Translations under genes and position numbers: made by a program
The notes under the pieces: model-generated
Seen by the model: the letters and a program-made list of their open reading frames with translations, nothing else
Databases searched by the model: none
What the model was told of the DNA's origin: nothing
In this document: positions 28,116-38,133 of the stretch, piece after piece
How positions within the stretch are numbered: position 1 is the stretch's first letter
Layout: each line of letters begins with the position of its first letter
Sequence record: PQ390715.1
Length of the DNA stretch: 64,000 nucleotides
DNA from: Escherichia phage SHEFM2K
Reading direction: 5' to 3' (one strand)

Positions 28116-28161
28116 ATCATAAATAAATCAAATGAATGAACGAATTATATGGAGTCCAAAA

Positions 28162-37100: not shown

Positions 37101-38133
37101 CCTATCTGATGGTGATAAGGTGATGATTTTCACTCCTGATGGTGAAGATTTTGTGAGATATCAAAATCACACATGGGAAACAATCTTGCGTGTATCTAAC
37201 ATCAAAAACAATACAACTCCGATCCTATTCACTGTAAGAAATACAGGTAAGGAAACGATTGAATTGATTGATGAGAGTACTGGTGCAGTTCTCCGTTATG
37301 ATAACATCACTCTTGCACAACAAAATGAGCCAGTACAGCCTCTAGCATTGAACATTGTTCGTGTTAGAACATTTGCTGACCCTGAATTTGTCAAGAATGG
37401 TATTAAATTGTATGAACAAAATAGAAATTACACCATTGATGTAATTAATTATGATGTTTTCTACGATACTACTTTAAATGGTGGTAAGTACAATGACGGA
37501 ATAACACCAGATGACGTTGACGTTTGGATAATCTCCAATGAAATATTTGATGTTGATGGAATTACTATCGATAACGGTTATAACTTACCAATTACGGGTG
37601 CGGGAGTTCTTAGTGAATTGGCAAGAACTAAAATGACTGATAGTTTAGAAATCAACGTTATCGAATATGATTCAAGTGTTATTCAACCGTTTAGAAATAA
37701 TGAAGGGATATGGGTTTATGGATTCCCAATGGTTGACGGTATGTATATCGGTGTTGTTGGTGGTACTGTTACTAACATCACAACCATTAGTGAAGAAAAT
37801 ACAACCTATGTTTCTCAACCTAAATCAATAAGTCCTTATAGTATTAGAAATAATGTTTTATCCGGTTCAGCCGCGAACATGAATGATATTATATCGATTG
37901 GATATGAAAAAGTTGAAGTTAGAAATGCAAATAATTTACTCCGTGGTGTAATGTATAGTGCAGAACATGATTTTAAACTTAATACCACATATTCTTTCAA
38001 TGGAATTAATTTAGGTAATTATGATATGTTAAAACGTTACACACAAAATAGTTACATTATAGATCTTTCAGTATACACTGATAGTCTACAAGTTAGTGGT
38101 AATGATATTAAAAATATATTATTAGTTAAGTAA
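28162..38133 (+). CDS. Giant hypothetical virion-module protein (about 3,320 aa from ATG 28162; track ORF 3,333 aa from 28132), with Phage_fiber_2-like W-N-G-S-x-W repeat flavour
   Basis: Single uninterrupted frame of about 10 kb in the baseplate/fiber module directly after gp6; Y/N/D/T/W-rich; YWNGSLW-type motifs; GGAG RBS before ATG 28162. No catalytic motif recognised by eye. Confidence 0.55.
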   Translation: MTNNFKFQPTQMAEAVQKKLFIKRLPEWMQGLEDIQKVSDDVIQQWFNPAENELVDGYIGDMGSPAAAGNIFLHESTVARQLYQLSTAYVSKNDDSTIRSIQFYDDLVGYMNHYGALTDNESRLFNGKFYAWTPAINPNKMNNFSSYLWDTKNSYNITSPDYIVMERGALNGNTWSLQNFWYTLGETLEDGSILTEELMQDSRFIRARAPIIEYNKNIELINYGTKFRGTVDLFSDIIKPEDIVQKDINSGIRIDGIIPQDGMRILFTSIGNNGENNRIYNVYVKKMQDGTRVYGLALDPEEETESRPSGEPQDGDVVLITKGNEYGNSSMYWNGSLWVRAQSKTSVNVFPKFQLYDRNGIKLDNSTTYSSSNFKGSELFGFKINYNYATDSVYGYNIELGDYNYYIYENFLQSQRYTYDHLGKEVEIDGLYYYNIIDENNEMNLQTDWVRSEEYSKQFVKQTPQVQRTDMYRVFSTVYDMEVFKEPVDGMYAYVIEVDRTYQYYKADRETYLDWHPITGDGVQIVKYDHTFELAQKVLDNDSDIIEVVVDGVDVSKYTKNVSKGQVQSITLDSTVELDEDSVIQIRTYSSTVTPNKELGAYEVPINLQNNPYNSNIIYINQGDYTLHFQDIIQKNITRGSSDDFNDYEERLAKGLVNNGVGTKIIQNEASMLPLMAHTANEDIDLFEATMFMQSEYFRFINKFNTQMLRMYDENPSDFLQNSAANIVDAILTTINMGRDSSFPFYYDNVGSTSGFIRAFIPPTPQFLGILQAYVPEKATFLTAGSKPSCYNISHTGIISKAYRVINGVDKMDDVVYELENRIFNSIDNKFKDVDYVPVLNSDDLFPTPYFTKTEYSAEEKQTLLLRGYINFTATNGISNSTHDYDPNNWRTWNYTGTYYVVNGQSTEIPARGSWRAIYTDQYGTYRPATHPWEMFGFTQRPTWWNQEYEPTAVQVGERDSDVVYVYEALVMNEQGDLVPSGLWDIDGTIGDSSTGTILFGDRRGQYDKYKRFGVQPFKITKTGNKTSSGIDICVVEYIAPEILGLVSGSLNHRAEPWTYGDMGDMEFTYMNTTLFAYDQMMLLYKAKPAQFANYFWDTRNDNLKEVFTDGSQFLYGDTRKRINFDKNTVVHGENSTRTIGYQMFVSDHLMYQNKNITTKYGDVVRSSYINVGHKIGGFTKADQLTFNAKSFGLISQENQTIGLVRSNNIRDEQMSAIKITWNGSAYQIDGYDLVGAKFKYKLPVKNGRKVTLKLENRNVVHYNEWKSEASIEYGKVFNSYQEVYTFICGYGEYLKEHGWIFEDVNDSGAQQDWNTIAKDFVIWSQNSLVTGEFISCTPSAANAKFGADFGSVQSITQNNGGVWSLLDDNNQGIRQYEIETSRIGNIFTVRTLESNKRIALIRLSLCSYEHAVIFDDKTIFGDYIYQPTYGSIQELIKMYGYITGSWTGRLQAPGFIILEAGTLPSFEKLVSDFQHYYDSETPVSDVQLQELSNHLIGYQSRDYLQRMISSDVSRVDFYKGFIHDKGTNQVLERVLRVSKSYDTDEYKALQEWAFKIGTYGNIDGKKNLQFKLINDQFKQQPQMVSFDVNATSNGNGNHIVYFGEQGKDPRWITRPNGKFSFPMRSGRSENIQLPDIGPVTLDEVSYTTKDFSTAYNDRITYTNGKGENPESVWMFKDGNGLWNIFELVDTNVQMVSITPIENTDVYAEQFCKVTLTDNVPLEDGDYYYFVDETNFMPDTLTVESQYYTAGSDPKVMVVPFDTSIDIEFTDPDTRPRLYRYVSRFASTDERQAYIDKKYSFKAPQSTLFDRPTTYDERTNITELYLNVYDPINGVIPGAAMQNVTYTSPVDPAQYNSNGELIQAWGADKVGQVWWNTSTAFYLDYTRAIYDADGNVDIDATNEYKRYNWGRLLPHSTIDVLEWVCSPVEPYNWDKYCKDVAKKNKNNTMYLPSGTALEDNYSTFLEYDSSTDSYVTKYYFWVRDTIYVPPLHTRTKSCTDIARIIKDPTQLNIPWFAPINENSFILSNMQFKVNDDTSILTVSYYMDSTEVVKHDQYQLCKEGDSYNFNPLIWDSMWNSLIGQETTESGSVINLLYPDVDNGLGSNKTWFQNVIEARRNFVESANNYYRSQNITTNSVVMEDVFNVKTTEVNPNEVSFRVLSYNNELVIAVESDKFKENDAVILSTSGYLPNPLTSSAVYFIHFDENGYIQLMNSPANAGSVVTITLENKGEGQHKMIKQSDYVESLGTSLDMTQYWSYADWYDVGYDSNTTYTQESSLEDANTKNYQVGDIIRVTDSENIWTLYIKSQSRDSIYWKAIGRENSTVELNDMLYADYSVHNDNGSLSNREINVRKALALLKNSFDLHQSEIVFDMVKYVHVEQSVVDWVFKTSYIYIVGLEQSLVQNYSNDNLINQIVEYFEEVKPYRTKIRSQIEQKTSDDDLIKGLCNDLDPNGYIFVDGSWIKTEKDIWDYEYAQFNEITQKWEQVGSLPSDFVTPNRRFQEIDIIMHYDNIQCKPNEDLASINELVSVNNKYQSNEKDAVSNYELQRYIYSFPEYSEETFDLLIAYQMQIYYPELDVTLGTAYGVNQWYKDHAEDLEATDEFTATLERVYKESTHNDMFTDLRQYVQYNTLANRLKLYKDISDEKIHDEVGCGFSGLTYNDNPSTRLPLGFSSSNDYNYGYFEISSELYQKYISLIKDKNPDASDYEVKVKLEVEYGVYVYRYDEVGGDTRFYTDAIHVLAGMRGLFDKDATDKYEKAEEILSKTPIDIYAITMIPRKYVYLNVNGVYQSIPDEQSIDDFMEDYFITNGEMVELAEINLDDLPLDQNNPMYSDYQYILDSITEAKYFNDMNAFDNLALESQTSSIKWEVKDDEVDPYIVDISDINPSGRDVGQIRFTVDGYGFDNVSLVQLRDNSRYQTEGMAIINPYKHTEAIVSIPSYAKIENDINKTTSKFDEKYFYRVRSINSLTEAEIVDNDLSDGDKVMIFTPDGEDFVRYQNHTWETILRVSNIKNNTTPILFTVRNTGKETIELIDESTGAVLRYDNITLAQQNEPVQPLALNIVRVRTFADPEFVKNGIKLYEQNRNYTIDVINYDVFYDTTLNGGKYNDGITPDDVDVWIISNEIFDVDGITIDNGYNLPITGAGVLSELARTKMTDSLEINVIEYDSSVIQPFRNNEGIWVYGFPMVDGMYIGVVGGTVTNITTISEENTTYVSQPKSISPYSIRNNVLSGSAANMNDIISIGYEKVEVRNANNLLRGVMYSAEHDFKLNTTYSFNGINLGNYDMLKRYTQNSYIIDLSVYTDSLQVSGNDIKNILLVK

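Follow-up and report, generated by a model that had tools for sequence, protein, structure and literature searches.

The window analysed here, the whole stretch of 64,000 nucleotides (nt) from Escherichia phage SHEFM2K (sequence record PQ390715.1), contains a giant open reading frame (ORF) of about 10 kb. We consider it reasonably probable that its product, hereafter the giant protein, is the wedge and periphery protein of the gp7 position, with the outer baseplate built as one chain. The gp7 slot is favoured because of the gene order, a conserved N-terminus that is predicted not to fold alone, the compact multi-domain nature of the rest, the variability at insertions and at the C-terminus, and the lack of any other gene in the window annotated as gp7-11-type. 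Amino acid (aa) numbers count from the ATG at 28132, so that M11 corresponds to the ATG at 28162:

28132-38133, + strand: giant ORF as called mechanically, 3,333 codons, ATG start
28162-38133, + strand: probable true coding sequence (CDS) of the giant virion protein, 3,323 aa, 381.9 kDa, isoelectric point (pI) 4.6

As the original prediction had recognized, the giant ORF stands directly 3' of homologs of gp25 and gp6, the position expected of the gp7/gpI/TssG family:

24124-24519, + strand: gp25-like sheath-initiator/wedge gene, 131 aa (PHROG 43, E 1.9e-15)
24621-28082, + strand: gp6-like baseplate wedge gene, 1,153 aa (PHROG 10646 and PHROG 219)

The same order is found in T4 (25...6-7), P2 (W-J-I), Mu (46-47-48) and the type VI secretion system (TssE-F-G), and the third gene there encodes the outer subunit of the (gp6)2-gp7 heterotrimer, which joins the core bundle via its N-terminus and is re-engineered for fibres (PMC8894135, PMC9942802, PMC13250141). 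The gp7-like part is a hot spot of re-engineering and fibre attachment in other contractile systems (PMC8894135), and the phiKZ wedge partner enters the core bundle by its N-terminus (PMC13250141). None of the other ORFs in the window carries a gp7-, gp8-, gp9-, gp10- or gp11-like annotation.

To establish how widely this arrangement is distributed, relatives were collected. With three thirds of the giant protein as queries, tblastn matched ~90 phage records, and a search of 5.8 billion proteins returned 190 homologous clusters. Homologs are 2,779-5,638 aa long in all 120 clusters listed of the 190, with no ordinary-sized homolog among those 120. Members of 5,100-5,638 aa (L014, P0075, P0080, P0119, P0120) carry Laminin_G_3, CBM_5_12, FG-GAP and TIG domains. 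The order gp25-like gene, gp6-like gene, one giant ORF is kept in 10 phage genera (that of the window and nine others) and on two metagenomic contigs, where GPW_gp25 is followed by a ~1,130-aa DUF8360 protein and then by the giant ORF. The giant ORFs that follow gp25-like and gp6-like genes in the nine other genera are:

RaK2: 3,326 aa
GAP32: 3,341 aa
XaC1: 3,332 aa
Vibrio phage 2.275.O: 3,771 aa
PA5oct: 3,857 aa
Atu_ph07: 4,449 aa
Phosso: 4,555 aa
Xoo-sp13: 3,245 aa
RAS14: 3,138 aa

The modules of the giant protein were delimited by mapping high-scoring segment pairs against 42 distant homologs. This analysis delineates a universal core of ~2,450 aa (conserved at aa ~20-1600, 1816-2140 and 2250-2465), family insertion hot spots at about aa 160, 470-586, 760, 1600-1816 and 2140-2250, and a C-terminal part that is clade specific:

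aa 11-160, 28162-28611, + strand: N-terminal module with the highest conservation (71% and 47% identity in the near and mid sets, dN/dS 0.04)
aa 161-1600, 28612-32931, + strand: universal core part 1, beta-rich domains followed by helical and alpha/beta ones; includes the YWNGSLW hairpin
aa 1601-1815, 32932-33576, + strand: variable stretch and main insertion hot spot, where relatives insert up to ~1,500 aa (e.g., FG-GAP repeats in P0092)
aa 1816-2465, 33577-35526, + strand: universal core part 2, Trp/Tyr-rich, strongly conserved at 1816-2140 and 2250-2465 (dN/dS 0.03-0.04)
aa 2466-3333, 35527-38130, + strand: clade-specific C-terminal module, 868 aa, the fastest-evolving part (dN/dS up to 0.14, the highest of the protein)

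Structure prediction with AlphaFold2, using 23-row alignments, gave two models, covering aa 11-1210 and aa 1266-2465. The first is a confident, compact, multi-domain body, with a predicted local distance difference test score (pLDDT) of 84.8 and a predicted template modelling score (pTM) of 0.78. Its sole unstructured part is model residues 1-70, where two short helices are predicted at pLDDT <60. A segment that folds on its partner would fit this behaviour, because the first ~70 residues are unstructured alone yet lie in the most conserved module; from the model, they are a candidate for the part that would dock onto the dimer of the gp6-like protein. The second model has a pLDDT of 72.8, with aa ~1575-2403 good (pLDDT 80-90). 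Within core part 1, aa 471-585 form a variable beta-sandwich stretch, and the core terminates in an invariant motif, EVKPYRTKIR.

Beyond the core, the C-terminal module shows 36-47% identity, versus 60-70% for the core, and is confined to the enterobacterial clade, XaC1 and a few others, being absent or replaced in distant relatives. An exhaustive HMMER search of 1.84 billion representatives found these 868 aa nowhere outside the family (seven matches, all giants or fragments of giants). Distant members bear CBM_5_12, FG-GAP, Laminin_G_3 and TIG domains. In the two relatives that were mapped, the added domains occupy insertion sites or the C-terminal extension; in P0092, FG-GAP repeats lie inside the 1600-1816 insertion and CBM_5_12 lies in its own C-terminal extension. 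Since the added domains sit there in both mapped relatives, the insertion sites and the C-terminal extension are likely to be solvent exposed.

Homology searches place the giant protein in its own family. Pfam gave no family at E<=0.1 for the full protein, with DUF6042 alone below threshold, and PHROGs gave nothing beyond the family's own model, 10938. Neither phmmer nor a 34-sequence profile matched any PDB sequence at E<=10. By blastp, comparison with T4 gp5, 6, 7, 8, 9, 10, 11, 12 and 53 produced only scattered alignments at E>=0.012, and hhalign of the family profiles against T4 gp5-12 and gp53 revealed no relative (probability <=1.4% in the gp7 comparison). The N-termini of the giant and gp6-like proteins do not match each other by hhalign; in the control, the gp6-like family profile against the T4 gp6 N-terminus was weakly positive (E 1.2e-3). 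Neither Pfam nor the PDB profile search revealed a polymerase, a lysozyme or any other enzymatic domain.

Three fold searches with the two models, in which the residues matched are unreported, returned weak neighbours. The top match is the N-terminus of CBA120 TSP4, which contains gp10-like domains (PDB 7rfv), and the recurrent neighbours include wedge proteins of gp6 type, namely P1 BplA (the P1 gp6 homolog), KP1 gp6, phiKZ gp87 and a Baseplate-J protein of a Streptomyces contractile injection system. A phi812 baseplate chain, podovirus fibre N-termini and immunoglobulin-like pilin domains also appear, and T4 gp7 is absent from all matches. The gp7-, gp8- or gp10-like and enzymatic domains for which the original prediction had proposed to look did not emerge from the sequence profiles, and the fold searches gave weak neighbours only. 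The models suggest ~2,400 residues without a solved structural relative, in a domain repertoire that looks baseplate-like.

The giant protein or its ortholog is a virion component in four independent proteomes. In phAPEC6, gp245 was detected by mass spectrometry of virions at 381.88 kDa with 17 unique peptides and 7.6% coverage (PMC7247149); RaK2 gp070w, of 382 kDa, was detected with seven peptides (PMC3622015 Table S3) and CBB_236 with 21 (PMC5259590), and the PA5oct ortholog is flagged for electrospray ionization tandem mass spectrometry (NC_071039, PMC7318152). None of the four reports (PMC7247149, PMC3622015, PMC5259590, PMC7318152) gives the protein a function, and gp070 goes undiscussed in the RaK2 adsorption-complex paper (PMC10253068) and in the main text of the RaK2 genome paper. 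The gp6-like protein has likewise been found in virions, as phAPEC6 gp244 (PMC7247149) and RaK2 gp071 (PMC3622015).

The giant gene corresponds to PBECO4 gp538, phAPEC6 gp245 and RaK2 gp070. The 10-kb locus is 99.9% nucleotide-identical to PBECO4 gp538 and similarly to its counterparts in phAPEC6, 121Q, G17, Sharanji and others of Asteriusvirus, the genus to which the window belongs. PHROG 10938 aligns over its full length (aa 11-3330 to positions 1-3324 of 3324, E=0), and the entries PHROG 10938, RaK2 gp070, phAPEC6 gp245, CBB_236 and PA5oct, which belong to the same family and do not differ from the giant protein in kind, are labelled only "virion structural protein" or "hypothetical protein." At least 34 phage records, sequenced independently, contain the gene at full length; nucleotide identities are 82-99.9%, with one clade at only 82%. 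Ecwhy_1, at 82%, has exactly 3,323 codons and zero indels relative to the giant gene; dN/dS against it is 0.083 for the complete gene and stays within 0.03-0.14 in all twelve segments compared, so that constraint on the coding sequence extends over its whole length. From these substitution patterns, the gene is under purifying selection from end to end.

That several genes were wrongly joined into the giant ORF by assembly or annotation is, given these data, close to inconceivable. Some records do split the gene into multiple CDS (SD-1_S14, SD-2, SD-6, CMSTMSU and one K64-1 record). In Salmonella phage SD-1_S14 (OR699183.1; the 2042 and 6053 region), three CDS arise via two deletions, one of 13 bp and one of 11 bp, which at 24 nt in all jointly restore the frame, and the record is short and draft-like at 310 kb; a sequence or assembly defect is the likely cause of the split in SD-1_S14, SD-2, SD-6 and CMSTMSU. 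Against an artefact stand the intact gene in the 34 or more independent genomes and many metagenomic contigs, its near-constant length of 3,310-3,361 aa in about 55 clusters, the indel-free Ecwhy_1 gene, and virion peptides assigned to the annotated 382-kDa product in phAPEC6 and RaK2.

The single uninterrupted frame of the original prediction is therefore a real gene, on stop statistics as well as on conservation. At the local composition of 33% G+C (stop probability 0.080 per codon), a stop-free run of 3,333 codons has a chance of ~1e-121, and the remaining two + frames across 28132-38133 contain 162 and 605 stops. The start is probably the ATG at 28162, giving 3,323 aa, because this is the only one of the two starts with a Shine-Dalgarno sequence, because orthologs begin there and because the mass agrees with that of phAPEC6 gp245:

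28151-28154, + strand: Shine-Dalgarno GGAG, 7 nt 5' of the ATG at 28162

No Shine-Dalgarno sequence precedes the ATG at 28132. RaK2, GAP32, XaC1, Ecwhy_1 and metagenomic orthologs all begin at the position of M11, and the mass computed from M11 is 381.9 kDa, versus the published 381.88 kDa. The RefSeq CDS of PBECO4 also starts at the equivalent of 28132, probably 30 nt too far upstream. The protein is rich in Tyr, Asn, Asp and Trp, as had been noticed (7.1%, 7.9%, 8.0% and 1.7%, respectively; pI 4.6), in part because the genome has 33% G+C. The YWNGSLW motif to which the original prediction drew attention is present, though neither repeated nor of tail-fibre type: a single copy at aa 342-348 (nt 29155-29175) lies on a predicted beta-hairpin, its W343 and W348 are invariant across the family, and no link of the motif to tail fibres is apparent.

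Taken as the gp7-position protein, the giant chain would be present once per wedge and six times per virion. Its conserved N-terminal segment, disordered in isolation, would dock onto the gp6-like dimer, the ~2,450-aa universal core would form the intermediate and peripheral baseplate from a dozen or more compact domains, and the lineage-specific insertions and the fast-evolving C-terminal 870 aa would face outside. The counterpart region in T4 consists of gp7, gp8, gp10 and gp11, and that in phiKZ of about a dozen separate proteins. We infer the baseplate location, the stoichiometry, the equivalence to gp7, the gp6-like contact and the fibre-docking role. More tentatively, and with doubts that outweigh our confidence, the entire intermediate and peripheral baseplate of Rak2-like phages might consist of six copies of one 380-640 kDa chain with domains evolutionarily unrelated to those of T4 and phiKZ, an independent single-chain solution in which the exposed insertions and C-terminus would serve as fibre dock and as a host-surface sensor, relaying the trigger to the gp6/gp25 core without separate gp8-gp11 equivalents.

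Several observations weigh against placing the giant protein in this slot. Gene order is the sole basis for the putative baseplate location; the only tail reconstruction is at 25 A (PMC7247149). By sequence homology (blastp, hhalign, Pfam and the PDB profile), it does not belong to the gp7/gpI/TssG family. Within the models, aa 1266-1575 and 2404-2465 are poorly predicted, and modelling stops at aa 2465, before the C-terminal 868 aa. A further point comes from a small neighbouring gene:

45023-45631, - strand: gene of a 202-aa virion protein (PBECO4 gp544, phAPEC6 gp251c, PHROG 11259)

A homolog of the 202-aa protein (tblastn E 1e-30 to 1e-57) is encoded directly 3' of the giant gene in PA5oct, Phosso, L014 and Vibrio 2.275.O and two short genes 3' of it in Atu_ph07, and gene position makes it a candidate partner of the giant protein. 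In the window it is inverted and lies ~7 kb from the giant gene, with genes for a ClpA-like protein, a 501-aa virion protein, a gp15-like protein, a NUDIX protein and a 366-aa virion protein between them. The best alternative to the gp7-slot assignment, though in our estimation a rather unlikely one, is that this ~200-aa neighbour fills the gp7/gpI/TssG role and that the giant chain is an outer peripheral scaffold only. Its conserved adjacency, a size like that of P2 gpI and Mu gp48, and its presence in virion mass spectrometry data (phAPEC6 gp251c, PMC7247149; PA5oct gp357, NC_071039) all speak for it, as does the giant protein's lack of a gp7-like fold or sequence signal. However, the order would then be gp25, gp6, giant, 200 aa, whereas gpI-type genes normally adjoin the gp6-type gene; no relative of the 202-aa protein turns up in Pfam or the PDB, inspection of its aligned N-terminus by eye reveals no obvious long helix, and the protein encoded after the giant gene in Xoo-sp13 and RAS14 is not homologous to it.

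The other alternatives concern the kind of protein that so long a chain could be. An elongated, probably trimeric receptor-binding protein on the baseplate, the giant tail fibre or adhesin considered in the original prediction, is improbable: the monomer model of the N-terminal 1,200 aa is compact and globular, self-BLAST finds no internal repeats, there is no fibre-type or other Pfam domain, and the C-terminal module occurs in no fibre protein among the 1.84 billion representatives searched. Unlike receptor-binding proteins, the 2,450-aa core is kept across hosts from Escherichia to Agrobacterium. Moreover, separate fibre and spike genes lie at 46213-56108, and the fibres of RaK2 are accounted for by gp526-534 and gp098 (PMC10253068). 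An end-to-end fusion of T4 gp7, gp8, gp9, gp10, gp11 and gp12 homologs would suit the location, which equals that of T4 genes 7-12, and the size, roughly that of several of those proteins summed, and the top weak fold match contains gp10-like domains; yet blastp, hhalign, the PDB profile and the fold searches disclose no collinear homology to the separate T4 proteins, and we give this fusion very little credence. Of the suggestion that the protein is a fused or greatly expanded baseplate or fibre protein, the expanded baseplate protein is what we infer; the T4 gp7-12 fusion and the fibre are unlikely. Equally remote is an internal protein that would act as tape measure or be ejected, as a virion RNA polymerase (vRNAP) is, in spite of a size like that of N4 vRNAP or phiKZ gp181 and of its presence in virions. 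The predicted fold is beta-rich, with multiple mixed beta/alpha domains rather than a long helix; at ~1.5 A per residue, 3,323 aa would specify a ~500-nm tail, versus the 123-128 nm observed; no polymerase, lysozyme or other enzymatic domain is found; and the gene is embedded between wedge genes in all relatives. The same low probability applies to the ejection protein that had also been proposed.

A closer look at known baseplates shows where the giant protein resembles and departs from them. Like T4 gp7, P2 gpI, Mu gp48, Pam3 gp23, phiKZ gp128 and TssG, it is a virion part encoded right after gp25- and gp6-like genes, and it would share with T4 gp7-type subunits the expected role of linking inner wedge and fibres, in a part prone to lineage-specific expansion (PMC8894135). 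It is, however, 3 to 20 times larger than T4 gp7 and the minimal counterparts and has no detectable sequence or fold similarity to them. Whereas the phiKZ periphery is made of many small and medium proteins (gp27, gp26, gp139, gp130, gp157, gp49 and gp161; PMC13250141), Rak2-like phages have one conserved polypeptide of 3,300-5,600 aa instead, without homology to those proteins. The weak match to CBA120 TSP4, a T4 gp10-like adaptor (7rfv), concerns one small domain, and the two proteins are dissimilar overall.

The giant gene is already in databases and its product is known to be virion associated, so the object itself was known before. The novelty lies in the argued placement in the gp7 slot, in the division into a 2,450-aa universal core and a clade-specific C-terminus, and in the lack of a solved homolog for the ~2,400 modelled residues. 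It is the largest gene in Rak2-like genomes and is conserved throughout the supergroup. These jumbo phages (Asteriusvirus, Alcyoneusvirus, GAP32/CBB-like phages, PA5oct and Atu_ph07) are studied for therapy and biocontrol because of their elaborate multi-receptor fibre arrays, and the gp7-slot assignment touches on how such arrays are anchored and how attachment triggers contraction. If the periphery is indeed a single chain, the giant protein would be the platform on which engineered fibres must dock and a striking case of one giant chain in place of a multi-protein assembly. With ~2,400 residues that lack a solved structural relative and whose prediction has moderate to high confidence, it is a good target for cryo-electron microscopy.

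Turning to the surrounding genes, the gp6-like protein, the presumed partner of the giant protein, is nearly double the size of T4 gp6 (1,153 versus 660 aa), and just its N-terminal ~100 aa fit gp6-type profiles. Its relatives on metagenomic contigs L014 and L015 are listed as Pfam DUF8360. On L014 (ERZ18669400 scaffold_467, 8001-24917), two genes come next after the giant one, first the 200-aa gene and then one of 677 aa whose product has a phage tail Collar domain. Farther upstream in the window lie two genes related to the tail lysozyme, and downstream lies the ClpA-like gene, a neighbour only:

20920-23583: gp5-like hub/lysozyme gene upstream of the giant gene, 887 aa
23620-24108: lysozyme gene between the gp5-like and gp25-like genes, 162 aa
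38170-40479, - strand: ClpA-like AAA+ gene (Pfam Clp_N, AAA, AAA_lid_9, AAA_2, ClpB_D2-small)

The 162-aa lysozyme ORF is a second copy of the tail-lysozyme domain with a gene of its own: it aligns with positions 727-885, the C-terminal lysozyme part, of the PHROG that the 887-aa gp5-like hub just upstream also matches. By its domain content, the ClpA-like product is a bona fide ClpA/ClpB-type double AAA+ protein. Its gene adjoins the giant gene in the enterobacterial clade and XaC1 alone, and PA5oct-like phages and Phosso have a homolog at a distance of 70-150 kb; as the displaced 202-aa gene shows, the adjacency arose by local rearrangement. This clade-specific adjacency weakens the link to folding of the giant protein that the original prediction had drawn, and co-occurrence across the supergroup is compatible with a putative chaperone role.

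The wedge genes are also punctuated by putative transcription signals:

24524-24547: terminator-like hairpin after the gp25-like gene
28089-28108, + strand: terminator-like hairpin GGGCGTTCTTCGGAACGCCT and T-run between the gp6-like and giant genes
28118-28125, + strand: CATAAATA, identical at 7/8 positions to the T4-type late promoter TATAAATA, read from the sequence
38137-38163, + strand: strong 12-bp hairpin terminator and T-run, 3 nt beyond the end of the giant ORF

The exact late-promoter motif TATAAATA is not enriched in the window, and it is speculative that CATAAATA is the giant gene's own late promoter. The strong terminator closing the giant ORF is borne out; because an A-run stands in front of the hairpin and the convergent ClpA-like ORF ends at 38170, it could also terminate the ClpA-like gene, so bidirectional use could be real. 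The gp25-like, gp6-like and giant genes each have their own terminator-like hairpin, with CATAAATA between the second hairpin and the giant gene, and together these elements could be a device that sets unequal expression of the wedge subunits.

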